DNA of 64,000 nucleotides from a virus (Duplodnaviria; Caudoviricetes): IMG/VR virus record IMGVR_UViG_3300023174_003901, positions 32,001 through 96,000 of that record; one strand, given 5' to 3'. The notes below the pieces were generated by a model that made no database searches, was not told the origin of the DNA, and saw only the letters and a list, made by a program, of their open reading frames with translations. A program made the position numbers and the translations under genes. Numbering within the stretch: position 1 is the first letter of the stretch; each line of letters opens with the position of its first letter. Shown here piece by piece: positions 35,019-58,079 of this stretch.

Positions 35019-35030
35019 CAGGAAACAGCA

Positions 35031-36029: not shown

Positions 36030-36044
36030 TTGGCAAACTCAATC

Positions 36045-36078
36045 AGGGCAAAAGGTAGACTTTTGCCCTTTTTTCTTT
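36045..36078 (+). terminator. Rho-independent terminator ending the tail module
   Basis: Perfect 10-bp stem AGGGCAAAAG / CTTTTGCCCT, 5-nt loop, then a T-run. Confidence 0.85.
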
Positions 36079-36084
36079 TATAAT
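36056..36084 (+). promoter_or_regulatory. Sigma70-type promoter for the GT/rSAM island, embedded in the terminator (leaderless)
   Basis: TAGACT-17nt-TATAAT, then 6 nt, then ATG at 36091; no SD. Confidence 0.65.
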
Positions 36085-36090
36085 ACTACA

Positions 36091-36399
36091 ATGAATACCG
36101 ATGCGTTAATTGCTCATGCACGAGCACGTTTTGATCATGTGGCCGCACGTCGTGTACTAAAAGAAAAGTACGAAGCCAAGATGTTGTTTGCTCATGCCGG
36201 CGGCATGTGGCGTGCCGGTCCTGAACTGCAATGTACTTTGTTGAGTTGTGCGCAAGACAAGGACGTGGTGCTGTTAGACTTGTACGAAACTCCTGTGCGA
36301 GTAAACGTTCCGGAACTGTTTGCTCGGGCACATGGCCACTGGCAAGAACAAATGAACGCTTGGCTGGTAGAATATGAAGAACAAAGTAAGAAACGATGA
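36091..36399 (+). CDS. Hypothetical protein, first gene of the island
   Basis: 102-aa ORF, ATGA-coupled to the next gene. Confidence 0.75.
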   Translation: MNTDALIAHARARFDHVAARRVLKEKYEAKMLFAHAGGMWRAGPELQCTLLSCAQDKDVVLLDLYETPVRVNVPELFARAHGHWQEQMNAWLVEYEEQSKKR

Positions 36400-37205
36400 C
36401 AACGGGCGCATTGATATTTGCGTTCAACAATGAACAAACCGACTACGTTGCTATGGCTGGATGGAGTGCTGAAAGAATTCGTAGGCACCTCAAGATCCCT
36501 ACAGCCATTGTCACGGACGCAAATCCAACAGATCGACGACTGGCTGCCGCAGATCAAGTCATTAATGCGACGCCAGTTTCCGGAGGAACACGTTGGTTTG
36601 AGGATTATCAAGCGACTGTGTCTTGGCACAACGCAGGTAGAACTGATTCATATTCACTTACACCTTGGGATCAAACTCTAGTACTAGACGCTGATTATGT
36701 GGTGTGCGGCAATGAATTGCAAACGGTGATCAACAGCCCACAAGATTTTATGTGCCATAGATTGGCCTGGGACATGACCAGCATGAATGACTTCGACGGA
36801 CTCAACTGGTTTGGCAACAATCGCATGCCCATGTGGTGGGCCACAGTAATGATGTTCCGTAAAAGCAACACAGCACAATATATCTTTGATTGCATGAACA
36901 TGATACGTGCAAACTGGCGTCACTACAAAGACTTGTATCATATTGCAGGACCTACCTATCGTAACGACTATGCTCTCAGCATTGCCATGGGCATTGTGAG
37001 TGGACATACATTACAAGTAGACAACATACCATTTGGCTTGGCCAGTGTCATGCCTGAGCACACTCTTAAACAACTAGACACAGACTACTTTGAAATTGGG
37101 TACACAGGACAGGACGGGAAACCCAAAACAATGGGTTGGCACGGTATGGACTTTCATGCCATGGGCAAAAAGCACCTAGGAGACATAGTTGCCAATCCTC
37201 GCTGA
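36396..37205 (+). CDS. Putative GT-A fold glycosyltransferase (GT8-like)
   Basis: Hydrophobic strand followed by DxD (TLVLDADY); WATVMMF; RNDYALSIA. Confidence 0.6.
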   Translation: MTTGALIFAFNNEQTDYVAMAGWSAERIRRHLKIPTAIVTDANPTDRRLAAADQVINATPVSGGTRWFEDYQATVSWHNAGRTDSYSLTPWDQTLVLDADYVVCGNELQTVINSPQDFMCHRLAWDMTSMNDFDGLNWFGNNRMPMWWATVMMFRKSNTAQYIFDCMNMIRANWRHYKDLYHIAGPTYRNDYALSIAMGIVSGHTLQVDNIPFGLASVMPEHTLKQLDTDYFEIGYTGQDGKPKTMGWHGMDFHAMGKKHLGDIVANPR

Positions 37206-37956
37206 ACGTGGCTACCTCATACCGGCTATTGACACCGACACAGTGGACTACCTTGGCTGTGCTATACAATTGGCACGATCTATTAGGCAGTGGCATCCAG
37301 ACGCCAATATTTCTGTTATATCTGTCAAACGCTGTGACAACCCAGTGTTCAATCATGTTATTCCTTTGCCTTATGGCGACCTTGGCGGTTTTGCCAATGA
37401 TTGGCAATGTTTTGCGGCCAGCCCTTACAGACAAACAATCAAACTGGAAGCAGATATGGTTATAGCCAGTCCCGTTGACCATTGGTGGACTATGTTTGAA
37501 CATCAAGATCTTGTGATATCTACTGGTGCTAGAGACTTTTATGATCAACCTGCTGACAGTAGATACTATAGAAAAACTTTTGATGCCAACCATTTGCCTG
37601 ACGTTTACAATGCTATAACTTATTGGCGAGTGAGTCGAACAGCACAAGAGTTTTTTCAACTGGTTCGAAACATTTTTGAAAACTGGACAGAGTACAAAAC
37701 ATTATTGAAGTTTCCAGATGAAAATCCCACAACTGATTTAGTATATGCCATGGCTGCACAGATCATTGGGCCAGAATTAGTTACCTTACCATTTGCAAGT
37801 TATCCTAAGATCGTGCATATGAAACGTCATATGATCGCGTCTCATACACCAAATTGGACACAGGAACTAGTATGGGAAAATAATCCCTTGAGATTCAACA
37901 CAGTGGCTCAATGGGGTGCTGTACATTATCATCAAAAGGACTGGCGCAGTGACTGA
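37189..37956 (+). CDS. Putative GT-A fold glycosyltransferase (GT8-like), paralog of 36396
   Basis: TIKLEADM (ExD); aligns by eye with the 36396 protein over its C-terminal half; HMK/HYH motifs. Confidence 0.55.
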   Translation: MPILAERGYLIPAIDTDTVDYLGCAIQLARSIRQWHPDANISVISVKRCDNPVFNHVIPLPYGDLGGFANDWQCFAASPYRQTIKLEADMVIASPVDHWWTMFEHQDLVISTGARDFYDQPADSRYYRKTFDANHLPDVYNAITYWRVSRTAQEFFQLVRNIFENWTEYKTLLKFPDENPTTDLVYAMAAQIIGPELVTLPFASYPKIVHMKRHMIASHTPNWTQELVWENNPLRFNTVAQWGAVHYHQKDWRSD

Positions 37957-38290
37957 ACAAGAATTTTTAAACTTTTGGAAAAACATTGAATGGCCTGAAA
38001 TCAAGCCGGTTTATCTTAGACTTTACCACGATGATTCGGGTCTGCCATTGTTTTACAGTCATGAAGATCAGCCCGGTAAGTATATTGACCTTACTCCTGA
38101 ACAGTTTGCATTGAGAGACCTGCAGGTACGTGTAGTTGATGGTGTGTTAAAACCACGCAAGCGACCGGTGCCACCTAAGTTAGTGCCCAGTGATCAAGGA
38201 ACACCTTGCGACCCTAATGATGTTGCTGTTGTAGTAAGCGCACAAGAACCCAACCAACAATGGAAATTAAAACAACATGAGCAAGATTGA
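37949..38290 (+). CDS. Hypothetical protein
   Basis: GTG start overlapping the upstream stop; RLYHDDSGLPLFYS. Confidence 0.65.
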   Translation: MTEQEFLNFWKNIEWPEIKPVYLRLYHDDSGLPLFYSHEDQPGKYIDLTPEQFALRDLQVRVVDGVLKPRKRPVPPKLVPSDQGTPCDPNDVAVVVSAQEPNQQWKLKQHEQD

Positions 38291-39203
38291 CATAGCAGAT
38301 TTAGACTGCATTTACCTAAGTTATGATGAACCGCAACAAGAAGAATTTTGGGTCAAGATTAAGAACATGGTGCCTTGGGCCCGACGGGTCAGCAATATAC
38401 GCGGAAGCGATGCGGCACACAAAGCCGCGGCCCTGGCTTCTGACACAGAACGATTTATCCTCGTGGATGGAGACAATCTCCCCGACCCAGCGTTTTTTAA
38501 CCAAACGCTTGATCTTCCTACATCTGAATATGAAAAGGCTGTGTTCCGCTGGAGAGCACGTAATCACATTAACGGATTGATGTATGGTAACGGTGGCTTG
38601 AGTTCATGGACAAAGACGCATGTGATGAACATGCGCACCCATGAAAACACCGATGGCGCAACAGAAACACAGATAGAGTTTTGCTTTGATCCCTTATACT
38701 GGGCCATGCATGACTGCTACAGTGTAACATATCCCAATGGATCAGCATTCCAAGCCTGGCGTGCCGGATTCCGTGAAGGGGTCAAGATGTGTTTGAATCG
38801 TGGTGCAAGACCTACTGTGGCAGAGTTTCGTGATCGTGTACACCAACGAAATCTAGATCACTTGACCATATGGCACAATGTGGGTGGAGATGTAGACTAT
38901 GGTTACTGGTCGATCGCTGGCGCAAGGCAAGGAACTTACATGACCATGCTCACTAACTGGGACTATCTACAGGTACAAAACTTTGAAGCACTTGCTGAAC
39001 TGTTTGAAACAGTAAAGAACGATCAACCTGAAATCATTGCCAATCGACTGGCAGACGAACTTGCTACACAACTAGACTTGCCCATGCACATGCTCACAGG
39101 AGAAGCCAGCAGATTCTTCAAACATCACTATCGTAGCAACTGGCATAACCAAGGCATCATGGTCAGAGAAATTGATGTCATTAGAGTACAAGAAGGTTGG
39201 TGA
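38277..39203 (+). CDS. Putative GT-A fold glycosyltransferase
   Basis: DCIYLSYDEP...GSDAAHKAAA...FILVDGDN (DxD)...NGLMYGNGG...AWRAGFREGVK. Confidence 0.55.
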   Translation: MSKIDIADLDCIYLSYDEPQQEEFWVKIKNMVPWARRVSNIRGSDAAHKAAALASDTERFILVDGDNLPDPAFFNQTLDLPTSEYEKAVFRWRARNHINGLMYGNGGLSSWTKTHVMNMRTHENTDGATETQIEFCFDPLYWAMHDCYSVTYPNGSAFQAWRAGFREGVKMCLNRGARPTVAEFRDRVHQRNLDHLTIWHNVGGDVDYGYWSIAGARQGTYMTMLTNWDYLQVQNFEALAELFETVKNDQPEIIANRLADELATQLDLPMHMLTGEASRFFKHHYRSNWHNQGIMVREIDVIRVQEGW

Positions 39204-39204
39204 T

Positions 39205-40293
39205 ATGTGGGAGTGTCCTGCTATTGATCACGGAGTGACTATTTTTCCAGACGGAAGAATAAGGCCATGTTGCCAAACATCAGCAGAATATAGTAAACCA
39301 CTGAGTGAAATTAAAAATCCTGCCCGATTTCAAGATCTAAAATCTCTTGACAACCCTAATGCTTGTAAATCTTGTTGGCACAAAGAACAACAAGGTTTTG
39401 ATAGTTATCGAAAGATGTATCAAACAAAAGTTACAAACGCCGACGGCATTCAATTTTTAGATGTAAGACACAGCAATCAGTGCAATCTCAAATGCCGATA
39501 TTGTAATCCTCACTTTAGTAATCAGTGGGCAAAAGAATTATCCTACCCTATAACTTTACAACAAAGCAAGTTTGATGACTATTTAGATCACTTGCTCACA
39601 AAGGATCTGGTAGAAATTTACTGGTGTGGTGGTGAGCCATTGATCAACAGCGATCATTACAACATGCTGGAGACATTAATTGCAAATGGTCTTAGCAAAA
39701 ATATCAAATTACGATACAATACTAATTTTACAGTAATACAATACAAAGATAAAAATGTGTTTGATCTCTGGCAAGAATTTAAATCCGTTAGTATTTCTAT
39801 CAGTGTAGATGCAGTTGGTGAAATATCCAATTATATTAGATCGGGCAGTAACTGGGATACCATATCTACTAATATAGATTTGGCACTAGAAAAAATTCAG
39901 AAGAATCATAAAATATCTATTAGTCTTTCGCCGGTGGTAAGTTTGCTCAGTATATGGACACTGCCCGAGTTATACAGGTACGCTGAACATAAAAAAATAT
40001 CAGTCAGCCCAATCTTATTGCACGGACCGGACTATTTGTCATTGATGGCAATACACACCAAACTGAAGCCATTGGCAATATCTACATTAAATTCCATACG
40101 CAATCAACTTGGACAAAACTACGATCAATTCATGTTACAATTAACTGAAGACGATAATGAATATCTGTTCAATCATGCAGTAAGGCATATATTGCTATTA
40201 GACAAGTTGAGACAAGAAAAATTATTTGATTTGCTACCATTTCAACAATTAGCAATAGAACTTACATTAAAAAATTATGACTACGAATTATAA
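39205..40293 (+). CDS. Radical SAM protein with N-terminal twitch domain (AT-rich)
   Basis: C...GRIRPCC...CKSCW, then CNLKCRYC and GGEP; start at the ATG just after the upstream stop. Confidence 0.9.
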   Translation: MWECPAIDHGVTIFPDGRIRPCCQTSAEYSKPLSEIKNPARFQDLKSLDNPNACKSCWHKEQQGFDSYRKMYQTKVTNADGIQFLDVRHSNQCNLKCRYCNPHFSNQWAKELSYPITLQQSKFDDYLDHLLTKDLVEIYWCGGEPLINSDHYNMLETLIANGLSKNIKLRYNTNFTVIQYKDKNVFDLWQEFKSVSISISVDAVGEISNYIRSGSNWDTISTNIDLALEKIQKNHKISISLSPVVSLLSIWTLPELYRYAEHKKISVSPILLHGPDYLSLMAIHTKLKPLAISTLNSIRNQLGQNYDQFMLQLTEDDNEYLFNHAVRHILLLDKLRQEKLFDLLPFQQLAIELTLKNYDYEL

Positions 40294-41659
40294 AAGTGTG
40301 TTTATGGGGGCAGCAGAACAAATGAAAGACCAACTTGGACACGCTTTATGTTTGGCCAAATGGAAACAAGTGAGTTTGCACTTGCCCACTGGACTCAACA
40401 ACTCCTGTTATCATCCGCCCTTGCATGCTATTCCTCAAGAGAATCTCACAAACAATCCCAGCAGTTTGCACAACACACCACACAAAAAAGAACAACGTAA
40501 AATCATGTTGCGTCAGGAGCGACCTACAGAGTGTAGTTATTGCTGGAACATGGAAGATCAGGGCAAACTGTCAGATAGGCATTATCGTTCAGGCGAACCC
40601 TGGGCCGCAGTGGACTTTGAACAAATAAAAAATTCAACAGGAGCCGAAGATGACATTATCCCTAGTTATGTTGAAGTTAATTTTAATAACGCTTGCAATC
40701 TCAAGTGTAGTTATTGTAGTCCTCAATTTAGTAGCAGTTGGGCAGATGAAGCCCAGAGAATGGGGCCTTATGCTACCAGTACTCCGCACAACAGCATGGA
40801 TCATTTTACCGGGAATAGGCGCATTATTCCTGCCCGAGAGCATAACCCTTATGTAGAAGCATTTTGGAAGTGGTGGCCCACGCTATACCCTGAATTAGAA
40901 CACTTTAGAATGACCGGTGGCGAGCCCCTAATGGACAAAAATACATATCGGGTATTTGATTATGTGTTGGCCAATCCATCTAAGAAACTGCACCTAAACG
41001 TTACCAGTAACTTTTCAGTAGAGCCAGAGTTGTTCAAACGGTATCTTGACTCGGTAAAAAACATCTGTGACGGCCGTATTGAACACTTTATGCAGTATGT
41101 GAGTGTGGACTCAGGCATACCCGCGCAGGCTGAGTACATAAGGCATGGACTTGACTACATGCGAATGTTTGAGAATGCCAACCGTTATTTAAAAGAGGTA
41201 CCATCCTATAATAGCCTCACATTTATCATTACCATGAACAATCTTTCAGTAACAGGATTAAAATCTTTACTGGGTTGGATACTGTTTCTAAGAAGAACAC
41301 ACAGTCGAACCTATCAACGGGTATGGTTTGACACCCCTGTGTTACGCACACCCACGTGGCAGAGTTTGCAAATTTTGCCCGAAAGTTATGCACTTAAACT
41401 TGAAGAAGTCAAACAGTTCATGCTGGAACACATGGAAGATCCACGGTACCCACATCAAGGATTCAAAGACTACGAAGTAGCAAGACTAGATCGAGACATT
41501 GCCTGGATGCGCAGTGCGCAGACACAAGATCATAGTCAAGCACGAGCAGACTTTTATAGATTCTTTGCGGAACATGATCAACGCCGAGGCACAGACTTCT
41601 TGGCCGCCTTTCCTGAGATGCGGTCGTGGTGGGAAGAGTGTAGATATCATGCTAGGTAA
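40277..41659 (+). CDS. Radical SAM protein with N-terminal twitch-like domain (KW/SCYH subtype)
   Basis: CLAKW...SCYHP...CSYCW, then CNLKCSYC and TGGEP. Confidence 0.9.
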   Translation: MTTNYKSVFMGAAEQMKDQLGHALCLAKWKQVSLHLPTGLNNSCYHPPLHAIPQENLTNNPSSLHNTPHKKEQRKIMLRQERPTECSYCWNMEDQGKLSDRHYRSGEPWAAVDFEQIKNSTGAEDDIIPSYVEVNFNNACNLKCSYCSPQFSSSWADEAQRMGPYATSTPHNSMDHFTGNRRIIPAREHNPYVEAFWKWWPTLYPELEHFRMTGGEPLMDKNTYRVFDYVLANPSKKLHLNVTSNFSVEPELFKRYLDSVKNICDGRIEHFMQYVSVDSGIPAQAEYIRHGLDYMRMFENANRYLKEVPSYNSLTFIITMNNLSVTGLKSLLGWILFLRRTHSRTYQRVWFDTPVLRTPTWQSLQILPESYALKLEEVKQFMLEHMEDPRYPHQGFKDYEVARLDRDIAWMRSAQTQDHSQARADFYRFFAEHDQRRGTDFLAAFPEMRSWWEECRYHAR

Positions 41660-42758
41660 TCGCCGACTGGTGTGCGACACTTCCTGTGAGATACATGCAG
41701 AAATACAGCATCTGACAGATGATACATTTTGGGACTTTGAGCAATACAATCCTTGTGCCAACGATATTGTTGTACTGGCTAGACAAACTGTAAATCGCTA
41801 TGCAGACCGTGTAAAAAAAATAACTGAAATCTGTTTGCCTGTGTTGGCCAATCCTTCAGAAGGATCACAAACTCTTAAACTACAATGTCAACGATTGGGT
41901 CTATTAGATTTGATTCAACAAAAGAAGTTGCTGTTGGTAGGATGTGGAGATATGGAGCCTGAACTCAACTGCATGGTCTACGATCATTATGCTTACAGAG
42001 CAACTTGTTATGCAAGTAATACAGAACAGGGTGCCAGAGCAGACGAAATCTATAGCAAGTTGCACAAGCCCTACAAATTTTTGTTTCTAAATGGTCGCAC
42101 AAGACCGCACAGAAAATACATGATAGAACTCATGCGTGATGCTGGACTGTTGGATCACGCACTATGGACCAACTTGGATACTACCCCGGTATACAATCAT
42201 ACCTATTCAACTGACCTGTTTGAAAGGCCCAGTGAGATACGTCTGTTGCCCTCTGAATACGAAGTAGAACAATTTCATGCAGGGCAGAAAGATCAATATC
42301 AACATGCCTTTGTCAAGCACGAATTGTTTGATAATACCTGGGGTGACGTGTATATTCGTGCAGAGCCTTACATAGATACCTACTTCAGTTTGGTGTCAGA
42401 AACTGTGTGCGATTATCCTTACAGCCTACGCAGTGAAAAGATCTACAAACCCATTGCTATGGCACATCCGTTTGTGGCTGTGGCCAATTGTGGCTTTTAT
42501 CGAGACCTGCACAATGCAGGATTTCAAACATTTGGGCACTTGATTGATGAATCATTTGACACAATAGACAACAATCAAGACCGATTGAATCGAATTGCAC
42601 AAGTAGTACAAGACTTGTGTGCCAGTGATCTGGCAGAATTTCTGGTTGCAAGTCGAGCCGTAACTAAGTATAATCAACAACACTTGGCGGTAGAAGGAAT
42701 CCGAATCTTTCGAGAATTTCCTGACCGTTTTGTCAATTTTATCCAAAACAATTTGTGA
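41649..42758 (+). CDS. Putative GT-B fold glycosyltransferase-like protein (GT10-like C-terminus)
   Basis: FLFLNGRTRPHR...YFSLVSET...SEKIYKPI...HPF...GFQTF...IDESFD; ATG at 41649. Confidence 0.45.
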   Translation: MLGNRRLVCDTSCEIHAEIQHLTDDTFWDFEQYNPCANDIVVLARQTVNRYADRVKKITEICLPVLANPSEGSQTLKLQCQRLGLLDLIQQKKLLLVGCGDMEPELNCMVYDHYAYRATCYASNTEQGARADEIYSKLHKPYKFLFLNGRTRPHRKYMIELMRDAGLLDHALWTNLDTTPVYNHTYSTDLFERPSEIRLLPSEYEVEQFHAGQKDQYQHAFVKHELFDNTWGDVYIRAEPYIDTYFSLVSETVCDYPYSLRSEKIYKPIAMAHPFVAVANCGFYRDLHNAGFQTFGHLIDESFDTIDNNQDRLNRIAQVVQDLCASDLAEFLVASRAVTKYNQQHLAVEGIRIFREFPDRFVNFIQNNL

Positions 42759-49255: not shown

Positions 49256-49353
49256 ATTGGTTTAAAAGACTTTGGTCAAGAATTACACTAGAAATACGCT
49301 ATCGTAAAAAACTAAAAGAACTACGCAAACGAGATCCATTTATCTACAAATGA
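49252..49353 (+). CDS. 33-aa basic peptide (absent from the ORF track)
   Basis: MNWFKRLWSRITLEIRYRKKLKELRKRDPFIYK; AGGAG SD at 49241-49245; ATGA overlaps at both ends. Confidence 0.85.
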   Translation: MNWFKRLWSRITLEIRYRKKLKELRKRDPFIYK

Positions 49354-50825: not shown

Positions 50826-51996
50826 TACGATCGACCACTGCTTGTAGTCTATGCCGCATGCCTGCCGCAAACACCTGATGATTGTGTTGTATTTCGGGTC
50901 TTAATTCATGGTAGATTGAGTGCAACTCTGACAAAGGTTTTGCACACAAACTCTTGGTAAGTGCCAGCACAGCCTCAAATCTTTCTTGATTGTTTTCAAT
51001 TGAATCGTAGTGTTCATCTATCACACGTCCAAATGTTTTGTATCCTAGATTACGCAGGTGCGCCAGGTGATTGTGACTACTCACCGCCACAAAGAATTGA
51101 TTGTTGAATATGGGCTTGAATGTTTTTTCTGTTATAAATTGACCACCTGAGTTGTCTATATCAATCATGGTCTCCAACACAATGTTAAAATAACTGTTAT
51201 TATAAAGGTCAGTCATGTTTGCAGTATAGTTGTTGTGAGCATCTGCATCTAGGTCATCCACACGAAATGGACCTGCTGTAATAAATTGATCGACTTGAGT
51301 TTGTTTGCTGGCCAAATAATCATTGCGCAACGCACAACCAAAGTAGTCATCCTCTCCGCCTAGCAAGTGCTGAGTGTAACTAAAGTATCCATTATGATGT
51401 AATCCATTGGTCCACAATTCACTCATGAACACTTTACGCCATAGTTTATCTATTCTACACAGGCCAGTGAACGCTTGGCTTCTTGGTTGTGAATGATATT
51501 GGGCACCTGCTGATTGATCCACAGTGCGCCAGTACATAAATTCCAGTTCAGGCCAATACACACAACCAGGCACTGAATCTGCTGAACTGTTGCCGCTTAT
51601 TAACCATACTTGTTCAGGATCTATTCCATGATTTGCACACAGTTGATTGATGCGTTCTCGCATGTGAACAGGATTATCGCCCTCGTGATAGGTAAACACC
51701 AACTGCATTTGTTTTTGTTGTATGCGAGTATATGCTGTAGAACTGATCATTGCAAGATAATCTGCGTAAAAATCAAAAAACCCAATTACCACTGGATACC
51801 AGGCACCGGGCGGTGCTTGCTCAGTTTCTACTATTTGTTGAGGAATACGGCACTGATGTAGATAATATATGATTCTAGGATAATCCAGTCGATGTCCGTC
51901 CATCTGTTCAATCAAATGATGTTGCTCTAATGGAATACCATTGGGCATGGGCCTGCCTGTCGCAGGATCTCTATGATCAATTGCTAGATAGATCAC
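50809..51996 (-). CDS. Putative GT-B fold glycosyltransferase-like protein, paralog of 41649
   Basis: YFNIVLET...ITEKTFKPI...GYKTF...IDEHYD. Confidence 0.45.
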   Translation of the reverse strand: MIYLAIDHRDPATGRPMPNGIPLEQHHLIEQMDGHRLDYPRIIYYLHQCRIPQQIVETEQAPPGAWYPVVIGFFDFYADYLAMISSTAYTRIQQKQMQLVFTYHEGDNPVHMRERINQLCANHGIDPEQVWLISGNSSADSVPGCVYWPELEFMYWRTVDQSAGAQYHSQPRSQAFTGLCRIDKLWRKVFMSELWTNGLHHNGYFSYTQHLLGGEDDYFGCALRNDYLASKQTQVDQFITAGPFRVDDLDADAHNNYTANMTDLYNNSYFNIVLETMIDIDNSGGQFITEKTFKPIFNNQFFVAVSSHNHLAHLRNLGYKTFGRVIDEHYDSIENNQERFEAVLALTKSLCAKPLSELHSIYHELRPEIQHNHQVFAAGMRHRLQAVVDRINYKL

Positions 51997-53137
51997 CGTT
52001 TATTGCTGCCTTGAGATTGTGTAACATTGTGGTAAGTTCTGTCCATAACATTTTTTCAAACCCGCCATTATAAAAGTGATTCCAGTTATGCTCAATAATC
52101 GGAATGCATTTTTTAAACATTTTGTTTTTTTCTTGTTCACTTTGTTGATCGAGTTTTTTTAATAATCGAGTTAGCATTGCGATTCGGATAGTGTCATCAG
52201 TTACTGTATCGTAATGCTCATCCCAAATAGTGTCAAACGTTTTGAAACCATATTGTCGAAGATACGCTAGACTGCCTGCAGGCGCACTCAATACAAAAGG
52301 CATACCCATAGCAATGGGTTTGAAAGTTTTTTCGGTTAGATGCTGTCTACGACCAAAAAATACAGTCTCACTCACATGGTATATCATACTTTCGGCACAC
52401 AAGTCAAATTGATCTAGCCAACAACTGCTCATACGTTGTGTGTCCTCTCCAGAGAATAATCTTGGTAAATCCATCTGAGAAATAGTTTCTAGTATGCCAC
52501 CTTTAAATTCCTCTTGTCCTGGAGACCAATTGTCAGGATATCTGTGTCTATAAAATTTTGCAATATCAACGATATCTTTGTTTTCAACAGGACATACTTT
52601 TGGAGCACTAATATGATTATGCATGAGATCAAACAGTTGAAAAAAGTACAGTTGAATCACTCGATGGCTACGCTCCCCTCCAATTATTCGGTTGGCACTA
52701 AAGAAAGTTTTTTTGATATGTCTTTGCTCAGGCGGCGTAATTAGAAATGCTCGATCATATCCTCTATACCAATCCAGTGCGGCCCAACCGTGGAAGAAAT
52801 AATAAAAAGGTTGCAATCCGTACACTTTGCATATATAATCTACATTGTCACTATTGGTTTCGCTTGTGACTAAGAATTTTTTTTCACTATCGTCATATGC
52901 ATGTGTGCTACTTAAATTGAAAGATTGAAAAGTAGGTAAATGAACACTAAGTTGTACAGGTTCTTGATCAAAAAAGAATATGTTATTTTTTTCTCTACCT
53001 TCTGGTGACCCTCTACACAAGATACTATCAGGATCGCTACGCCCAAATGGATCACAGTAAAATATTGCAGTATCAGGACAGTTTTTTCTTACCCAAGGTA
53101 AAAATGTATTTTCATAAATTTCGTCTATTCTAATCAT
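51977..53137 (-). CDS. Putative GT-B fold glycosyltransferase-like protein, paralog of 41649
   Basis: VSETVF...LTEKTFKPIAMGMPF...GFKTF...WDEHYD. Confidence 0.45.
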   Translation of the reverse strand: MIRIDEIYENTFLPWVRKNCPDTAIFYCDPFGRSDPDSILCRGSPEGREKNNIFFFDQEPVQLSVHLPTFQSFNLSSTHAYDDSEKKFLVTSETNSDNVDYICKVYGLQPFYYFFHGWAALDWYRGYDRAFLITPPEQRHIKKTFFSANRIIGGERSHRVIQLYFFQLFDLMHNHISAPKVCPVENKDIVDIAKFYRHRYPDNWSPGQEEFKGGILETISQMDLPRLFSGEDTQRMSSCWLDQFDLCAESMIYHVSETVFFGRRQHLTEKTFKPIAMGMPFVLSAPAGSLAYLRQYGFKTFDTIWDEHYDTVTDDTIRIAMLTRLLKKLDQQSEQEKNKMFKKCIPIIEHNWNHFYNGGFEKMLWTELTTMLHNLKAAINGDLSSN

Positions 53138-54743
53138 GTTTGATGTATTTTACACAGGCACACCGCCCAAATTGTTTCCGCATGAGCAGCAGGTAGACTC
53201 AATCGAGCAAGCACAACAGCAGAGCCGTACTAGATATTTCTGGTGGATAAATTACTTATCGGACTACTCTGCGTTTGATTTTCTTTGGCAACCTGTGCCT
53301 TGGGAAAGTGATCAGATGCATGTGTGGCCCAGCCAGCATCAGTCCAATGGCGGGACTGCATTGGTGCCACGTGAGTACGATCATGTGAATAGATCACACC
53401 CTGTAGTGCCTCGACGAATCGGTGCGCCGCGCTTGCATATTAAACACAACCCAGATAGTGATAATGCTGGTGATATTAATGTGCGTTATGTGTCTGATTA
53501 CCTGGGTACTATGCGTAGGGTATTGAGTAAGACCAAATGGGAATATTGTTGGATCACCAGCGATGTTTGTGATTATGCCGACTTTGACTTCTCCTGGCAT
53601 CCTAGCGAGTGGCAGTTAGATATGCTTCATGTATTTGCCAGCAATGAACAAAAATTCGGGGATACATTCTATGTACATGTGCCCAGTTTCTTGGCCAAGA
53701 CCAAAAATTTAAAAGTGCTAGAATGGTTTGAAACTTTGAACTTTATCAAGGACCGACCAGTACCCAGACTACCAATGCCCCAAGTCAAGTACATAGATGA
53801 TAGTATTGCCACAGCAGTATGGAAACACGAATTTGCAACTCCATTGGTTGAATTCTGTCAAACAGTGACTTTGGGCAACCATGTACCTACAGTAAGTCTA
53901 TGGCAAGAGAGTACTAAAACAGTGATGCCTCTCAGTAAAGGACATGCTACCGCTGTTGTACCCAGAGAGTGCAAGAATTACATCAAGACACAGATTTACG
54001 ATTATCCTTACATTGACAAAACTAAAATCACTCTAAATGAAACTCCGATGGATATTGTGTTTATTTCAAACGGAGAAAACGAAGCCGAAACCAACTATCA
54101 ACGACTCATGCAAAGTACCAAGGCCTGGTACAACAGTAGCCTTAACAAGATACATCGAGTGCAAAATGTTAACGGCCGTGTGGCTGCCTATCATGCAGCC
54201 GCTGAAGTTAGTACAACACCTTGGTTCTTTGCTGTTTTCGCCAAACTACAAGTTGAACAAAACTTTGATTGGTCGTGGCAGCCAGATCGCATGCAACAGG
54301 CCAAGCACTATATCTTTCATGCCAAGAATCCTGTGAATGGTCTGGTATATGGGCACCAGGCCATGATTGCCTACAATCGTCGACTGACCCTGGCCAACAC
54401 AGGACATGGACTAGACTTTACTCTTGACGATTTACACGAAGTTGTGCCTATCTTGTCGGGCACGGCCAACTACTACACAAGTTCATGGATGTGTTGGCGC
54501 ACAGCATTTCGAGAGGTGTTAAAATTACGGGCCAGTTTGCCCGATGTGGAAAATGAGTATAGATTGAATCAGTGGCTGACCAAAGATAACACTCCCGACC
54601 AATGGAGTATCAAAGGTGCCCAGGATGCTGTAGAGTACTATGAATCAGTCAGTGGAGACTTTGAACAACTGAGAAAGAGTTATGAGTGGGCTTGGTTGGC
54701 CACTTATGCCTTGATCAAACGAGGTCTAACAACTGATCGATAA
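53136..54743 (+). CDS. Protein with three tandem GT-A-like repeats; C-terminal part paralogous to 38277
   Basis: Three FD(F/W)xWxP motifs; DIVFIS...AYHAAA...NGLVYG...WRTAFREVLK aligns with the 38277 protein. Confidence 0.55.
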   Translation: MFDVFYTGTPPKLFPHEQQVDSIEQAQQQSRTRYFWWINYLSDYSAFDFLWQPVPWESDQMHVWPSQHQSNGGTALVPREYDHVNRSHPVVPRRIGAPRLHIKHNPDSDNAGDINVRYVSDYLGTMRRVLSKTKWEYCWITSDVCDYADFDFSWHPSEWQLDMLHVFASNEQKFGDTFYVHVPSFLAKTKNLKVLEWFETLNFIKDRPVPRLPMPQVKYIDDSIATAVWKHEFATPLVEFCQTVTLGNHVPTVSLWQESTKTVMPLSKGHATAVVPRECKNYIKTQIYDYPYIDKTKITLNETPMDIVFISNGENEAETNYQRLMQSTKAWYNSSLNKIHRVQNVNGRVAAYHAAAEVSTTPWFFAVFAKLQVEQNFDWSWQPDRMQQAKHYIFHAKNPVNGLVYGHQAMIAYNRRLTLANTGHGLDFTLDDLHEVVPILSGTANYYTSSWMCWRTAFREVLKLRASLPDVENEYRLNQWLTKDNTPDQWSIKGAQDAVEYYESVSGDFEQLRKSYEWAWLATYALIKRGLTTDR

Positions 54744-55809
54744 TGTATTCCACTTCCAAGTCTGACAACTCAGGGTAGATAGGCAAACTCAAACAGCGTC
54801 TGCTTAGTGATGATGCTGGACTTAGTAAATCTGGGCCAGTAAGATTTCGATAAGCAGGCAATTCATGCAAAGGCTCAGCATAGTGTACCTTGGTTTCGAT
54901 CTTGCGTATGGCAAGATTACGTTGCACAATATCTCTGGCATCCACCTCAATCACAAACTTGTGATAGCAATGCGTTGAGAAGTTAGTATCGTCGATCAAG
55001 GTGCGTATACCAGTGTTCTTTAATCGTTCGATCCAGTGACGGGCAATCTCAGCCCTGCGTTTTTGCCAAGCATCAATATAACGTGTCTTGATCATCATCT
55101 GAGCACAGTCTGTTTCGCTCATCCTTGAATTTGATCCAGTTTCAGCGTGTCGAGTATGCTTGCCGTTGTTCACCCAGTTTCTTGCATAGTCCAAGAGATT
55201 TCTATCATCTGACACTATGGCACCGCCATTGCCGTAGTTGCCTAAATTTTTCATAGGGTCAAAACTGATGGTCGCGGCACCACCTTGTCTCTTACACCCG
55301 TTGCTTAACCAGTGCTGGGCCGCATCTTCAATCAACAATGCCCGACTTTCGATTAGTTGTATGTCACGCAAGGCCGCACCATACAAGCCCACAGCACACA
55401 CAGCATGGTAGTGTGTGTCCATGTCACTGAGCAACTTTCTCACGTCAATCTGACCGTAGTAGTCAGTATCCGCAATTATGACCTGCCAGCCTGCTCGTAT
55501 GAAAGCATTAGCAGTGGCCGGATAGGTCAAGGCAGGTACAACCACAGTGGGAGGCTTAACAAACGCCAAGTCCTGGTCACGATAGAACCCGGCTATGATC
55601 TCAAGTGCCTGTGTGCCCGAGTGACAAGTCACAGCATAACTCACGTGATTTTTCTTGGCCAGCCAGTTTTCAAATTCAGCAGTATAGTTGCCGCCCATAA
55701 GAATACCCGAACGCAACACTTCATCTGTTGCATCCAGGATTTCTGTTCTCAGGGTATTATACTGCTTTCTTAGACCAGTAAAGGGGATAGTAAGGCCGGT
55801 GGTTGTCAT
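54715..55809 (-). CDS. DegT/DnrJ/EryC1/StrS PLP-dependent sugar aminotransferase
   Basis: IEDAAQ; SFDPMKNLG with the PLP lysine; GxNSRM; LSLPIYPEL. Confidence 0.93.
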   Translation of the reverse strand: MTTTGLTIPFTGLRKQYNTLRTEILDATDEVLRSGILMGGNYTAEFENWLAKKNHVSYAVTCHSGTQALEIIAGFYRDQDLAFVKPPTVVVPALTYPATANAFIRAGWQVIIADTDYYGQIDVRKLLSDMDTHYHAVCAVGLYGAALRDIQLIESRALLIEDAAQHWLSNGCKRQGGAATISFDPMKNLGNYGNGGAIVSDDRNLLDYARNWVNNGKHTRHAETGSNSRMSETDCAQMMIKTRYIDAWQKRRAEIARHWIERLKNTGIRTLIDDTNFSTHCYHKFVIEVDARDIVQRNLAIRKIETKVHYAEPLHELPAYRNLTGPDLLSPASSLSRRCLSLPIYPELSDLEVEYIIDQLLDLV

Positions 55810-56765
55810 TTGTTCCAGTAAGGCGATTCACTCAACCACTTGTAGTAATTTTGGAATCCTTCTTCAACGTCTACTTTGGGATCAAATCCCAAAATCACTC
55901 GTGCGCGATCGATACACAATGCACCACGTGTGGGAAAGTCCGCATCTCTATCACGACATTCAATTGTGCCCTTACCCACAATCTTCACAATCATTTCTGC
56001 GGCTTCTAACAAACTTACCGAGTGTGATTTGGTAATATTATATGTGCGATTTGCCGCCATAATTCTTGTGGCTGCCGCAACAATTCCATCTGCCGCATCA
56101 TCAACATAGGTGAAGTCAAGTGTTTCTGCGGCTCCGTTAACTCGTAGAACATCACCACGCATGGCCTGGAGCATAAACTTTGCAACCACCCGGTCTTCCA
56201 CATCAAGTGGGCCATACACAGCACTAGGGCGAACAATAGCATAATCGAAAGCGCCGCGTCTGTGGTAGTCTTTGACAATGTCTTCTCCTGCCAGTTTCAT
56301 GATGCCGTATTGACCAATGGGTCGGCACTCTGCTTCTTCTTCCACTTGGTCTGCAAAGTCACCATACACCATGCTTGAACTTATATATACCACACGCTCT
56401 ACACCGTGCTTTTTGGCACCCTCACAAATGTTCATCAAACCTTCCATCATGACCCTGGCACCCACAGCAGGGTTGGCATTGACAACTTTCTGTCTAGGGA
56501 AACTCGCCATGTGGATAATAACTTCGGGTTTGTGATTCTTTACAATTTGATCAAACTTGACGCCATCGACGATGTCTGTGTAGTATACATCTGTTGGATT
56601 AATCTTTTTCCAACGTTCCGCCATCAAGTAATCTAGTTCGTCTTGTGGTATGATACCATATGTAGTGCGGTTATCTACAATCACAACATCGTCGCCGCGT
56701 TTTTGCAAACGTTGCACTACATTGTGCCCAATAAGACCTAGTCCACCTGTTACTAAAAATTTCAT
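55806..56765 (-). CDS. NAD-dependent NDP-sugar epimerase/dehydratase (extended SDR)
   Basis: TGGLGLIG, SSSMVYG, YGIMK (YxxxK), DFTYVDD. Confidence 0.93.
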   Translation of the reverse strand: MKFLVTGGLGLIGHNVVQRLQKRGDDVVIVDNRTTYGIIPQDELDYLMAERWKKINPTDVYYTDIVDGVKFDQIVKNHKPEVIIHMASFPRQKVVNANPAVGARVMMEGLMNICEGAKKHGVERVVYISSSMVYGDFADQVEEEAECRPIGQYGIMKLAGEDIVKDYHRRGAFDYAIVRPSAVYGPLDVEDRVVAKFMLQAMRGDVLRVNGAAETLDFTYVDDAADGIVAAATRIMAANRTYNITKSHSVSLLEAAEMIVKIVGKGTIECRDRDADFPTRGALCIDRARVILGFDPKVDVEEGFQNYYKWLSESPYWNK

Positions 56766-57088
56766 TTTATGCTACTCCATTTGAGTTTAAAATAAGTTTG
56801 ATCTGCTTCTTTCAACCTGGCCACAACATAGTAGCGATACCCAAATGATTCCATGTCTGGCTGCCGAGTCCAAAAAGGAGGCTCTACAGCATGCGCCATA
56901 ACCCAGGCACCGGCTTCGCTTTGTTGCCAGTCGTATAAAGGTTGTGACGCATACATGTCCGGATCTTCTACATCGCCCATGGGAAAGTGATGCACAACCA
57001 CATCACTATAGGCAACCGCAACACCATCAATTACTTTGACTTCTCGGGGTTGGGATAGATTGGATTGTTCGGAAAGATATTTGGCCAT
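56762..57088 (-). CDS. Hypothetical protein
   Basis: 108 aa; ATGA-coupled to the epimerase; has its own promoter. Confidence 0.7.
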   Translation of the reverse strand: MAKYLSEQSNLSQPREVKVIDGVAVAYSDVVVHHFPMGDVEDPDMYASQPLYDWQQSEAGAWVMAHAVEPPFWTRQPDMESFGYRYYVVARLKEADQTYFKLKWSSIK

Positions 57089-57093: not shown

Positions 57094-57122
57094 AGTATAG
57101 CAGATGGATCAAGTTTTTGCAA
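57094..57122 (-). promoter_or_regulatory. Sigma70-type promoter for the hypothetical-epimerase-aminotransferase unit (leaderless)
   Basis: TTGCAA-17nt-TATACT with a TGn extension, then 5 nt, then ATG at 57088. Confidence 0.7.
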
Positions 57123-57780: not shown

Positions 57781-58079
57781 AGATCTTTTAATAGTTTATC
57801 AGTTTCGGGTTGGATCAGCCGAGCCACAGCATTGACATCAACTGCAAAGTCAATATCACGCACTAGGTCACCAAGTTCAATGAGATTTCTAGTGAGATAC
57901 GATTCAATTTCTTCTAGATCAAAACCATCGCGTTTGAGTCGAGCAAGGTTAATGGTCTTTCGACGACCACTTTGCAGTCGAATAACAATTTTGTTAATAC
58001 ACTCTAACGGAACTTCGGTTTTGTCTACACCGGAAATTATATGATCCCACTGCTTAAGAAATTCATCACTCAGTTGCAT
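57777..58079 (-). CDS. Hypothetical protein
   Basis: MQLSDEFLKQW...; ATGA-coupled to thyX. Confidence 0.65.
   Translation of the reverse strand: MQLSDEFLKQWDHIISGVDKTEVPLECINKIVIRLQSGRRKTINLARLKRDGFDLEEIESYLTRNLIELGDLVRDIDFAVDVNAVARLIQPETDKLLKDL

Follow-up and report, generated by a model that had tools for sequence, protein, structure and literature searches.

In the window, a 64,000-nucleotide stretch of phage DNA, the fibre module closes at an intrinsic terminator and is followed by a 21-kb module of genes for predicted glycosyltransferases, radical SAM proteins and sugar enzymes (Table 1). The sequence-only reading had described a tightly coupled gene run after this terminator and the gene calls agree, placing 15 plus-strand genes between 36091 and 50825 downstream of the hairpin, each overlapping its neighbour or no more than 1 nt from it. 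The hairpin is the sole strong intrinsic terminator in the region. Relatives keep a hairpin, a T-run and a TAtAAT box at this position, with different stem sequences. The module has its own start, downstream of the fibre-module terminator. The promoter is sigma-70-like, with no obvious late promoter, and the terminator divides the module from the fibre genes. Terminator and promoter together leave shared expression of the module with the virion proteins presumptive, a point counted against the best explanation given below.

Homologs of the 102-aa protein were found in 19 of 35 loci, the remaining loci ending before that position, and the 113-aa protein is conserved in 30 loci at 40–60% identity. 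The 345-aa protein, an addition to the earlier description, had zero matches in Pfam, PHROG, NCBIfam and PDB profiles. Its gene follows the last radical SAM gene and precedes the carbamoyltransferase gene, from which it is parted only by the gene for a 33-aa protein and sometimes also by an inserted gene. The 108-aa protein is syntenic in relatives and gave no match in the family search. None of the module proteins has a TM-like segment.

Table 1. Features of the module, its upstream boundary and its paralogs in the window.
Coordinates	Strand	Feature	Remarks
2970..4553	-	Radical SAM paralog outside module, type I, N-terminal extension	NF033640 375 bits
5598..6896	-	Radical SAM paralog outside module, N-twitch type II	NF033640 217 bits
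35031..36029	+	Last fibre-module gene, 332 aa, candidate O-glycosylation acceptor	32.5% Ser+Thr
36045..36069	+	Intrinsic terminator hairpin	10-bp stem and T-run; closes fibre module
36056-36084	+	Sigma-70-like promoter, TAGACT-17-TATAAT	Overlaps terminator
36091..36399	+	102-aa conserved protein, first module gene	No family match
36396..37205	+	A1, 269 aa, GT8-like candidate by motifs (N..DY, LVLDADYVV, FHAMGK)	Alignments A1, A8
37189..37956	+	A2, 255-aa A1 paralog, EAD replacing DAD	phrog_1903; alignment A2
37949..38290	+	113-aa conserved protein	Gene call
38277..39203	+	A3, 308 aa, GT-A (GT2-like) fold, invariant DGD, C-terminal helical domain	
39205..40293	+	Radical SAM, N-terminal twitch, type I (PCC motif), accessory	NF033640 262 bits
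40277..41659	+	Radical SAM, N-terminal twitch, type II (SC[YH]HPP motif), core	NF033640 320 bits; alignment A4
41649..42758	+	X1, 369 aa, GT-B fold glycosyltransferase	AF2 pLDDT 94.6
42755..44086	+	Radical SAM, N-terminal twitch, type II, core	NF033640 291 bits
44083..45747	+	Radical SAM, N-terminal twitch, type I, core	NF033640 415 bits; alignment A4
45744..46949	+	Radical SAM, N-terminal twitch, type I, core	NF033640 338 bits
46936..48225	+	Radical SAM, N-terminal twitch, type I, core	NF033640 289 bits
48218..49255	+	345-aa conserved protein, no recognised fold	Alignment A9, 65% mean identity
49252..49353	+	33-aa basic micro-protein, ends ...LRKRDPFIYK	ATGA overlaps with both flanking genes
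49350..50825	+	O-carbamoyltransferase, NodU/CmcH/TobZ family	Pfam Carbam_trans_N and Carbam_trans_C
50809..51996	-	X2, GT-B paralog of X1	hhalign 99.7% to X1; alignment A6
51977..53137	-	X3, GT-B paralog of X1	hhalign 99.2-99.7% to X1 and X2
53136..54743	+	535-aa protein, C-terminal A3-like GT-A domain without DxD (VFAK)	Alignment A7
54715..55809	-	DegT/DnrJ/EryC1 PLP sugar aminotransferase	Pfam 2e-57; SFDPMK lysine motif
55806..56765	-	Extended SDR, UDP-sugar 4-epimerase/UXS-like	Pfam Epimerase 1e-44
56762..57088	-	108-aa conserved protein between ThyX and SDR genes	Module membership uncertain

No gene of the module is more strongly conserved than A3 (mean identity 82%). In Foldseek its AF2 model (pLDDT 86.6) best matches 2p6w, the capsid glycosyltransferase A64R of PBCV-1 (probability 1.0), and VIA-align gives Z of 8–9 over 130–142 residues; in AFDB its own unnamed homologs come first, followed by GT2-like rows. 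The predicted GT2-like fold with its DGD upholds the earlier assignment of A3 as a GT-A-like protein. The 535-aa protein had been read as a triple GT-A repeat, of which one GT-A-like domain stands, residues 303–515 matching A3 (hhalign 99%) with VFAK for DGD; the other supposed domains are two N-terminal repeats of ~55 aa with an FDFxWxP motif (repeat 1 against repeat 2, hhalign 95.7%). The best 50 Foldseek matches of X1 in the PDB are all GT-B glycosyltransferases, to which it aligns with Z of 11–13.5 over 260–290 residues. Its fold neighbours include WaaG, PglA and TarM, as well as the T4 DNA beta- and alpha-glucosyltransferases (Z 12.3 and 11.3), and it carries a GT10-like motif (...ET...TEK..KP) with E251, E263, K264 and K267 invariant. 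The three GT-B-like paralogs proposed earlier are supported, X1 by predicted fold and X2 and X3 by homology to X1. The verified glycosyltransferase folds in the module, predicted from models or from homology to a modelled paralog, are four (A3, X1, X2 and X3).

The GT8 label first given to A1 and A2 could not be confirmed: ordered motifs and an ESM-Atlas match speak for it, and Pfam and hhalign were negative. The two proteins are related to each other (hhalign 98.3%), and A1 has homologs in 1043 representative clusters of public data. The ESM-Atlas feature score of A1 to a phage cluster is 0.96, with PF11051 in 11% of the members of that cluster. Neither protein matched Pfam, NCBIfam or PDB profiles, PHROG gave no functional match (the function of phrog_1903 is not annotated), and hhalign against E. 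coli WaaJ/WaaO gave 2% probability. One A1 homolog in related cassettes has inserted CBM5/12-like repeats.

The six twitch radical SAM enzymes counted from the sequence are all confirmed as members of NCBIfam NF033640 (N_Twi_rSAM, in which the twitch domain is N-terminal). They match at 262–415 bits against a cut-off of 170 bits, and all have intact cluster motifs, with CX3CX2C, GGEP and four invariant cysteines upstream of the core. The first gene is absent from most relatives, where matches to it are paralog-level (median 29.6%). The second has 35% identity (E 1e-84) to RsoM2USA_349, an ortholog that adjoins A3 in Ralstonia phage RsoM2USA, and is 33% identical to the third. The fourth shares an extra N-terminal domain of ~160 aa, present in only some relatives, with the paralog at 2970–4553. 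For the fifth there are at least 7787 database homologs (E<=1e-5), and no PDB sequence relative was found at E<=0.01. Besides these six and the two paralogs elsewhere in the window, a ninth is found elsewhere in the genome. In the 2970–4553 paralog Pfam SPASM (139–203) precedes Radical_SAM (248–412), and a homolog of the 5598–6896 paralog lies within the module in some relatives (L014, L016, L020, L029 and L035). Both paralogs have SbcC/SbcD-like genes as neighbours. In bacterial MAG contigs, genes of this family are arrayed with other radical SAM genes, without homologs of the GT-like genes of the module. These arrays, and the paralogs near SbcC/SbcD, count against a sugar role, and the radical tailoring of sugars proposed from the sequence is putative. 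No paper characterising NF033640 was found in the literature searched, and to our knowledge no N-twitch family member has a known substrate.

A carbamoyltransferase with a coupled peptide had also been reported, and both Pfam domains and the overlapping 33-aa gene are indeed present. The closest PDB relatives of the enzyme are NovN (1e-49), GdmN and TobZ, and it has the HHLSH metal motif. Across 64 loci the C-terminal 21 aa of the micro-protein are nearly invariant while third codon positions are free to vary, and loci without the carbamoyltransferase also lack the 33-aa gene; the micro-protein is called here its putative obligate partner. The epimerase and DegT aminotransferase said to converge on the run are likewise both found on the minus strand with Pfam matches. 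The DegT enzyme is closest in the PDB to QdtB, Gln:scyllo-inositol transaminase, 2oga (which we take to be DesV) and WbpE, with QdtB, DesV and WbpE being sugar 3-aminotransferases. The SDR enzyme has UDP-glucose 4-epimerase-like, UXS and MoeE5 relatives, with GGLGLIG and YGIMK motifs. A sugar nucleotidyltransferase, ketoisomerase or dehydratase was not found in the 200-kb fragment, which leaves the amino-sugar route incomplete as written.

The whole gene order, beginning at the fibre gene and running to the DegT and SDR genes, is kept in ~70 freshwater jumbo-phage contigs. The genes of the module co-occur in related large phages, and the description of the locus as an island does not hold: the locus belongs to the conserved, syntenic genome of a phage clade, with variation in some slots only. 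The slots that vary hold additional radical SAM or GT-B paralogs and nothing else, a pattern that diversification of a glycan would lead one to expect. Related cassettes hold other nucleotide-sugar genes, such as the UDP-glucose dehydrogenase gene in L100. In the cultured phage RsoM2USA, A1, A2, a small ORF, A3, a type II radical SAM gene and a second A3-like gene lie behind the fibre genes, and the same minimal core is present in the divergent contig L098. The virion protein genes ahead of the RsoM2USA core are MS-confirmed (PMC8504454), and the position of the core directly behind them is counted in favour of a glycan on the fibres.

The gene for the 332-aa protein is located directly ahead of the module in relatives also, and its homologs there have 27–33% Ser+Thr versus 11–21% in other structural proteins. 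RsoM2USA ORF355 has 20% Ser+Thr, a level counted against a fibre acceptor. Among the conceivable targets (virion, host surface and DNA) we infer a cytoplasmic protein acceptor, which is favoured because the module has no membrane protein, flippase or polymerase and lies behind a Ser/Thr-rich protein.

Synthesis and tailoring of a glycan by the module is fairly likely, and the closest solved relatives of the sugar-pathway enzymes, which act on sugars or aminocyclitols, are counted in its favour. The sequence-only proposal of glycan synthesis, transfer and tailoring fits the enzyme inventory; it needs correction as regards the island, and its GT8 labels and the sugar role of the radical SAM enzymes are putative. 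The best explanation, offered tentatively and with chances a little short of even, is a conserved cytoplasmic block for glycan assembly and tailoring in a clade of freshwater jumbo myoviruses, probably acting on fibres. A fibre protein of the virion as acceptor is possible, if somewhat doubtful. BtrN is a twitch radical SAM enzyme that oxidises a sugar-type C-OH to a ketone. In the proposed scheme the SDR enzyme would convert host UDP-sugars, radical SAM enzymes might, by analogy with BtrN, oxidise sugar C-OH groups to ketones, and the DegT enzyme would transaminate these. The glycosyltransferases would assemble an oligosaccharide on a soluble acceptor, each remaining radical SAM paralog may act at a single position, by epimerisation, oxidation or deoxygenation, and the carbamoyltransferase would cap a hydroxyl with carbamoyl phosphate as donor. 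Among acceptors, fibre proteins of the virion would be likeliest, the 332-aa protein foremost. If so, the product would be a decorated tail fibre, altering host recognition or shielding the fibre.

The same enzymes could instead make a soluble, aminoglycoside-like small molecule during infection, a carbamoylated amino sugar or aminocyclitol with no protein-linked glycan, which could serve to hold back competitors or to re-tune the host. For three kinds of enzyme the nearest characterised relatives belong to antibiotic pathways, namely the TobZ, NovN and GdmN carbamoyltransferases, a Gln:scyllo-inositol transaminase and enzymes with BtrN-type twitch radical SAM chemistry, and all module proteins are soluble. 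A similar cyanophage trio of aminotransferase, amidinotransferase and radical SAM genes has been named 'antibiotic synthesis genes' (PMC12801897). Such a product is nevertheless unlikely, since no cyclase (DHQ-synthase-like, for example, by Pfam) or resistance gene is seen in the module, the lack of TM-like segments leaves no obvious exporter, and seven glycosyltransferase-like proteins are many for one small molecule; nor would it explain why phage lineages unrelated to one another share this fixed place after the fibre genes. Likened to SPASM/twitch RiPP enzymes, the radical SAM proteins might be protein or peptide maturases that cross-link or otherwise mark a small precursor or the fibre proteins, with the glycosyltransferases separate. 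This is quite improbable. After NF033640, most weak NCBIfam matches of the accessory enzyme are peptide maturases (PapB, YhhB and DynA among them), as are some of those of the other paralogs, which are mainly viperin, MoaA and QueE; however, these score 15–40 bits against cut-offs of 129–855 and reflect the shared core. Only Radical_SAM, SPASM and Fer4_12 domains are found by Pfam, hence no recognisable RRE-type domain. The run does contain small conserved ORFs (102, 113 and 33 aa), but a Cys-rich or repeat-rich precursor was not seen, and the 33-aa protein accompanies the carbamoyltransferase rather than radical SAM arrays.

Modification of O-antigen by glycosyltransferases that phages encode is well established, and this precedent, together with WaaG, PglA and TarM among the fold neighbours of X1, would fit remodelling of a glycan of the host envelope (precursors of LPS, capsule or EPS at the cytoplasmic face) for superinfection block or surface change. 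The module is, however, without a membrane protein, flippase, polymerase or polyprenyl-phosphate transferase, and, adjoining the fibres, it belongs to the syntenic core of a jumbo phage clade of lytic type, which makes this an improbable role. There is only a slight chance that the target is phage DNA or its nucleotides, with a modified base glycosylated and carbamoylated through radical SAM steps. The T4 glucosyltransferase matches that suggest it are equalled by dozens of other GT-B enzymes. ThyX, encoded three genes away on the converging strand, is counted for this target by its position, yet it implies ordinary dTMP supply. A ThyA-like hydroxymethylase was not found in the 200-kb fragment, which is 58% complete as a genome, so that its absence is weak evidence. 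Two radical SAM paralogs do lie among SbcC/SbcD-like genes, but the module itself is in the structural arm, outside the replication arm.

Glycan assembly and tailoring, the preferred reading, has parallels in several known systems. Among PDB entries, A3 is closest in predicted fold to A64R, a capsid-glycosylating enzyme of the chlorovirus PBCV-1, and the carbamoyltransferase resembles the sugar-acting NovN/TobZ kind. In mycobacteriophages, phage glycosyltransferases add glycans to the virion (Freeman 2023, cited in PMC11256854), and pelagimyophages carry radical SAM cassettes within their host-recognition cluster, beside the tail fibres (PMC7029224). Within the literature searched, no characterised phage pathway was found to combine this many radical SAM enzymes with glycosyltransferases, as the sequence-only reading had supposed.

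The virus record of 200,246 bp is estimated by CheckV to be 58% complete. Its baseplate wedge protein has 34% identity to those of the ~350-kb Rak2/GAP32-type jumbo myoviruses and, by this protein, the phage is a distant relative of that group. Near-identical DNA is present in lake and freshwater metagenomes from at least four studies, and no near-identical sequence was found in RNA runs. A megablast search with the 21-kb block against 50,697 phage records returned zero matches.

On its 5' side the module is preceded by baseplate genes, a gene encoding a fibre-like protein of 4167 aa and another three, smaller genes of the fibre module. A fibre-module protein encoded at 33816-35018 on the plus strand has a weak Peptidase_G2 / intramolecular-chaperone autoproteolysis match (E 0.0015) at residues 246-324, a kind of domain present in self-cleaving tailspike and fibre C-termini. 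Within 36091-50825 there are fifteen plus-strand genes, in which neighbours overlap by 4-17 nt or are separated by a 1-nt gap; this is the tightly coupled run that the sequence-only reading placed directly after the fibre terminator. The only convincing intrinsic terminator within 33000-52900 is at 36045-36069, with a 10-bp stem and a T-run, and the module starts 22 nt 3' of it. A promoter-like TAGACT-17-TATAAT sequence overlaps this terminator. In relatives, a hairpin and T-run followed by a TAtAAT box occupy the same position with different stem sequences. Since a terminator and a promoter-like site precede position 36091, the module appears to be transcribed as a unit of its own and not as the 3'-terminal part of the fibre operon. 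On the other side, the minus-strand stretch 57109-63555 prolongs the DegT/SDR strand that converges on the module.

Features of the module and of its surroundings in the window
Feature	Position	Strand	Remark
SbcC-like gene	406-2169	-	
Outlying radical SAM paralog	2970-4553	-	N-twitch, NF033640
Metallophosphoesterase	4550-5581	-	Probably SbcD-like
Outlying radical SAM paralog	5598-6896	-	N-twitch, NF033640
Ser/Thr-rich 332-aa protein	35031-36029	+	
A1	36396-37205	+	GT8-like candidate
A2	37189-37956	+	GT8-like candidate
A3	38277-39203	+	DGD motif, predicted GT-A
Module radical SAM gene	39205-40293	+	NF033640, 262 bits
Module radical SAM gene	40277-41659	+	NF033640, 320 bits
X1	41649-42758	+	Predicted GT-B
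Module radical SAM gene	42755-44086	+	NF033640, 291 bits
Module radical SAM gene	44083-45747	+	NF033640, 415 bits
Module radical SAM gene	45744-46949	+	NF033640, 338 bits
Module radical SAM gene	46936-48225	+	NF033640, 289 bits
345-aa protein	48218-49255	+	
33-aa protein	49252-49353	+	
Carbamoyltransferase	49350-50825	+	
X2	50809-51996	-	X1 paralog
X3	51977-53137	-	X1 paralog
535-aa protein	53136-54743	+	
DegT	54715-55809	-	
SDR	55806-56765	-	
ThyX	57109-57780	-	Strand converging on module, beyond DegT/SDR; syntenic in relatives
DUF2201 metallopeptidase-VWA protein	59513-60781	-	Syntenic in relatives
MoxR-type AAA ATPase	60873-61955	-	Syntenic in relatives
TctC-like periplasmic binding protein, N-terminal hydrophobic segment	62614-63555	-	Syntenic in relatives

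Two scans of viral contigs gave a set of 73 loci for the comparison of gene order. The conserved order begins with the Ser/Thr-rich fibre gene, a 102-aa ORF, A1, A2, a 113-aa ORF, A3 and a radical SAM gene. It continues with an X gene, four radical SAM genes, the 345-aa and 33-aa genes, the carbamoyltransferase, two minus-strand X genes and the 535-aa gene, and then passes through the minus-strand DegT and SDR genes to ThyX and beyond. The genes thus co-occur in relatives from the fibre gene to DegT/SDR, and with its order conserved across the 73 loci the block is a core syntenic region of the genome, not the island that it had been called. The number of genes varies, with 5-6 radical SAM genes and 2-5 GT-B paralogs per locus, inserted in three or four slots; the first radical SAM gene of the module (39205-40293) is such an accessory copy. 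The DegT/SDR pair is occasionally missing or replaced (loci L042, L024 and L073). The complete block, at 70-85% protein identity, is also found on two contigs of 148 kb and 183 kb (L077, NZ_JBBAKG010000003.1, and L078, NZ_JBBAKG010000001.1) that are binned as a Haliscomenobacter MAG. These are probably two related jumbo phages that have been mis-binned, and the binning may at most point to the host.

Among 50,697 GenBank phage records, homologs of A3 (37% identity) and of the type II radical SAM protein (35% identity) were found only in Ralstonia phage RsoM2USA. The locus there consists of the fibre-like ORF355, ORF354, the A1 homolog ORF353, the A2 homolog ORF352, ORF351, the A3 homolog ORF350, the radical SAM gene ORF349 and a second A3-like gene, ORF348. 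The published description leaves these ORFs without annotation; for the neighbouring ORFs 356, 359 and 361, mass spectrometry confirmed that they are virion proteins (PMC8504454). The core is likewise present in a divergent metagenomic contig (L098), where three radical SAM genes follow it. By these two loci the minimal unit is (small ORF)-A1-A2-(small ORF)-A3-radical SAM, of which the window contains the most elaborate version among those examined.

The six radical SAM genes of the module are paralogs with pairwise identities of 21-33%. All six, previously proposed as twitch enzymes, score 262-415 bits with the NCBIfam HMM NF033640 (N_Twi_rSAM, 'twitch domain-containing radical SAM protein'), for which the curated cut-off is 170 bits. 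There are nine full-length members in the 200-kb fragment: six in the module, two elsewhere in the window and one outside the window, far from the module (G000:C1:189852-190979, minus strand, 237 bits). In Pfam searches the SPASM-type domain precedes the Radical_SAM core rather than following it. Alignment of the eight window paralogs shows an invariant C-x(17-18)-C-x(41-51)-C-x2-C pattern N-terminal to the CX3CX2C motif, an invariant GGEP and no conserved cysteine downstream of CX3CX2C. The invariant cysteines are C21, C40, C86 and C89, then C135/C139/C142 (45708 numbering, alignment A4). Members therefore have in common an N-terminal four-cysteine twitch domain, a CX3CX2C core and a C-terminal helical region. 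Differences at the second ligand define two subtypes, PCC (type I) and SC[YH]HPP (type II). No radical SAM relative was found among all PDB sequences by phmmer at E<=0.01, and the literature search found no characterised NF033640 member. An extra N-terminal domain of ~160 aa with the motif RI[IV]VV.. is common to two of the paralogs (44083-44562 and, on the minus strand, 4077-4553); it is present in some orthologs of 44083-45747 only.

The two outlying paralogs of the window are in the minus-strand region 406-7840, interleaved with the SbcC-like gene and the metallophosphoesterase. The ORFs flanking them (2179-2973 and 6947-7840) are not GT-like and do not match the module families. The family has thousands of metagenomic members with the inverted domain order; the matches listed in a homolog search with one of the radical SAM proteins were all near-orthologs. 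Genome contigs were scanned for the family with a three-paralog alignment. In Vibrio phages K566, K567 and F86, N-twitch radical SAM genes form arrays of up to four, with no A1, A2, A3 or X homologs. MAG contigs of Bdellovibrionota, Verrucomicrobiales and Spirochaetota contain one to six copies, whose neighbours are further radical SAM genes, one of them B12-binding, and in a single case an integrase; homologs of the module GT-like genes are absent from these contigs. Association with glycosyltransferases is thus not a general feature of the N-twitch family. On a 936-kb contig of a Bdellovibrionia MAG (L087), a tyrosine integrase is followed within 1461-17506 by seven radical SAM genes of several kinds, N-twitch and B12-binding among them, together with a QueC-like fragment; the arrangement resembles a mobile island of multiple radical SAM genes within a bacterial chromosome.

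None of the putative glycosyltransferases, nor any other non-radical-SAM unknown, has a match in the Pfam, PHROGs, NCBIfam or PDB sequence profiles, and homolog alignments from related contigs and structure prediction were therefore used. The X1 model, built with 55 orthologs and paralogs, has a pLDDT of 94.6. Its top 50 Foldseek matches in the PDB are all GT-B glycosyltransferases, including WaaG, PglA, TarM, SenB, SdgB and fucosyltransferases, and VIA-align places it on GT-B enzymes with Z 11-13.5 over 260-290 residues. X1 is predicted from this model to have the GT-B fold, with two Rossmann-like domains. X2 and X3 are homologous to it (hhalign 99.2-99.7%), in keeping with the three GT-B-like paralogs proposed earlier. 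All three retain a GT10-like ET...TEK..KP motif. Further leads to GT10 are an ESM-Atlas value of 0.78 and the presence of H. pylori FucT among the fold matches (Z 12.5); a six-frame search of the phage genome with the GT10 HMM (PF00852) gave no candidate even at E<=10.

A3 is the most conserved gene of the module, with a mean identity of 82%. In its model (pLDDT 86.6), residues 3-155 align to GT-A enzymes with Z 8-9 in VIA-align, and the best Foldseek match in the PDB is PBCV-1 A64R with a probability of 1.0. In AFDB its own unnamed homologs come first, followed by GT2-like glycosyltransferases. The Pfam GT2 HMM does not match A3, and it gives equal scores with nucleotidyltransferases that share this fold (MobA, IspD). 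The assignment as a glycosyltransferase is therefore based on D64-G-D66, which is invariant among orthologs, and on the GT2-like neighbours. A3 is predicted to be a GT-A enzyme, GT2-like, with its DxD after beta-4, and the fold searches thus bear out the proposed GT-A and GT-B proteins for A3 and X1 respectively. The sole canonical Pfam GT2 (Glycos_transf_2) match of the 200-kb record is in a 310-aa frame outside the window (G000:C1:119476-119793, minus strand). The 535-aa protein, described earlier as a triple GT-A repeat, has one A3-like domain at residues 303-515 (hhalign 99%), with VFAK instead of DGD. Its two N-terminal repeats of ~55 aa are related to each other (95.7%) and only weakly to the third, therefore the description is partly right.

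A1 and A2 are paralogous (98.3%) and belong to a large family with 1043 representative clusters. The proposal that they are GT8-like is supported by three GT8-like motifs in the correct order, and not by the profile comparisons. The GT8 HMM (PF01501) had no match at E<=10 in a six-frame search of the phage genome, none of 72 diverse A1-family members taken from the full HMMER scan matches any GT family in Pfam, and hhalign of A1 against E. coli WaaJ/WaaO gave a probability of 2% and was also negative against A3. No GT8 templates were found in the five genomes in which they were sought. In one ESM-Atlas feature neighbour of A1, 11% of members have PF11051. The 345-aa protein is conserved and has no database match anywhere in profile searches. 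In another locus (L100:26-2245, P0235), an A1-family protein has an insert of ~490 aa after its first 42 residues, composed of four tandem W-Y-P-N-L-P-Y...W-Y-E-N-x-L-Y-R-C repeats with a faint CBM_5_12 match. A fusion of fibre and A1 was considered for this protein and rejected in favour of a homolog of A1 into which CBM5/12-like repeats have been inserted. The same cassette contains a UDP-glucose/GDP-mannose dehydrogenase and a faint GT8 match.

The carbamoyltransferase recognised in the sequence-only reading has both domains above the Pfam cut-offs (Carbam_trans_N, 117 bits; Carbam_trans_C, 159 bits) and an HHxxH motif. Its nearest solved relatives are NovN (1e-49), GdmN (5e-43) and TobZ (2.5e-33). 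Against the NodU equivalog NF041651 it scores 141 bits, with a cut-off of 1000 bits, and by sequence it is placed in the NodU superfamily and is not NodU itself. The coupled peptide noted with it is the 33-aa ORF, which has ATGA overlaps on both sides and a C-terminus of ...LRKRDPFIYK, and which was found in 64 loci. Third codon positions are free to vary, yet the 21 C-terminal residues hardly change, which shows that selection acts on the protein. The ORF is absent from all loci without the carbamoyltransferase, and the protein is therefore read as a partner of this enzyme rather than as a substrate of the radical SAM enzymes. On the same grounds its product was rejected as a possible RiPP precursor acted on by the radical SAM enzymes.

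The DegT aminotransferase (Pfam, 195 bits) and the epimerase (Pfam Epimerase, 153 bits) that were proposed to converge on the run are likewise recovered with their motifs intact. DegT has the PLP-lysine motif SFDPMKNL, and its nearest PDB entries are QdtB (7e-42), a Gln:scyllo-inositol transaminase, 2oga, which we take to be DesV, and WbpE. The SDR has GGLGLIG at residue 7 and YGIMK at residue 153, so that both GxxGxxG and YxxxK are intact, and its PDB relatives are UDP-glucose 4-epimerase/UXS/MoeE5-like. Overall, the observation made in the sequence-only reading is largely confirmed. Its interpretation is plausible and needs correction on three points, namely the GT8-like pair, which is only a candidate, the triple repeat and the island.

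The module proteins have no TM-like segment, the maximum Kyte-Doolittle mean over 19 residues being 1.43, and no flippase, polymerase or polyprenyl-phosphate transferase is present in the module. Glycan assembly would therefore take place in the cytoplasm, with a soluble acceptor. Immediately upstream of the module, the product of 35031-36029 contains 32.5% Ser+Thr, and its homologs 27-33% at 43-68% identity; other structural proteins have 11-21%. The location behind fibre genes recurs in RsoM2USA, and in pelagimyophages radical SAM cassettes are within the host-recognition cluster beside the tail fibres (PMC7029224). The module might instead act on DNA, as two radical SAM paralogs are positioned among SbcC/SbcD-like genes. 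Against this, no ThyA-like hydroxymethylase is present in the 200-kb fragment (58% complete), and ThyX is ordinary.

With the fibre protein as acceptor, the SDR would interconvert a host UDP-sugar, a twitch radical SAM enzyme would oxidise a sugar hydroxyl to the ketone, and DegT would then transaminate it, following the logic of BtrN/BtrS. The GT-A and GT-B enzymes would assemble the oligosaccharide on Ser/Thr of the fibre protein, the remaining radical SAM paralogs would each edit single positions, and the carbamoyltransferase and its 33-aa partner would cap a hydroxyl. Folds, families, motifs, gene coupling and synteny are established directly here, and a module for glycan synthesis, transfer and tailoring is a plausible reading of them. 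No nucleotidyltransferase or ketoisomerase for the sugar route was found in the 200-kb fragment. A more speculative and rather doubtful extension is that the N-twitch radical SAM enzymes are new oxygen-independent glycan editors acting on the fibre-attached oligosaccharide, with one paralog per position (epimerisation, oxidation and then transamination, or deoxygenation). They would generate a variable, radically tailored, carbamoylated glycan code on the receptor-binding organelle, and the same chemistry would have its cellular equivalent in the Bdellovibrionota arrays.

The system is uncharacterised in the literature searched and is present beyond this genome. If the reading is true, phage-encoded virion glycosylation extends well beyond a few actinophages and giant viruses, as a widespread and elaborate property of jumbo phages from water and soil, and the large N-twitch radical SAM family gains a substrate class. 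Experiments are made possible by RsoM2USA, which is cultured and has the six-gene core after virion genes confirmed by mass spectrometry. The 33-aa partner may also be relevant to the small ORFs of unexplained role next to other O-carbamoyltransferases.

TobZ, NovN, GdmN and NodU have the same two-domain architecture and HHxxH motif as the module carbamoyltransferase. Of the relatives with solved structures, NovN and TobZ act on a sugar hydroxyl, which they carbamoylate. The SxtI carbamoyltransferase is flanked by small unexplained ORFs, in the order sxtI-sxtJ-sxtK (PMC2885083). This resembles the coupling of the 33-aa ORF to the module enzyme, and there is no detectable homology between the 33-aa protein and SxtK-type proteins. 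In 2-deoxystreptamine biosynthesis, BtrN, a twitch radical SAM dehydrogenase, is followed by BtrS, a DegT-family transaminase. The module likewise pairs twitch radical SAM enzymes with a DegT aminotransferase, and has a single auxiliary cluster with four Cys ligands. However, the twitch domain is C-terminal in BtrN and N-terminal in the module enzymes, which have neither the C-terminal twitch nor, by phmmer at E<=0.01, the sequence kinship of BtrN-type dehydrogenases.

Glycosyltransferases encoded by the mycobacteriophages Che8 and Rita are reported to glycosylate proteins of the virion (Freeman et al. 2023, PMC10527164, cited by PMC11256854), with the capsid named as the acceptor (PMC11256854). 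The module resembles these in its predicted phage glycosyltransferases and has a Ser/Thr-rich candidate acceptor alongside. We know of no radical SAM enzymes or carbamoyltransferase described in these two phages. A64R of PBCV-1 is a GT-A encoded by the virus, and it acts in the cytoplasm to glycosylate the capsid protein. At ~10% sequence identity its likeness to A3 is at the fold level only, and A3 has an additional C-terminal helical domain. NF033640 is a family known by its sequence definition, to which the module adds a fixed array of two ligand subtypes beside glycosyltransferases.
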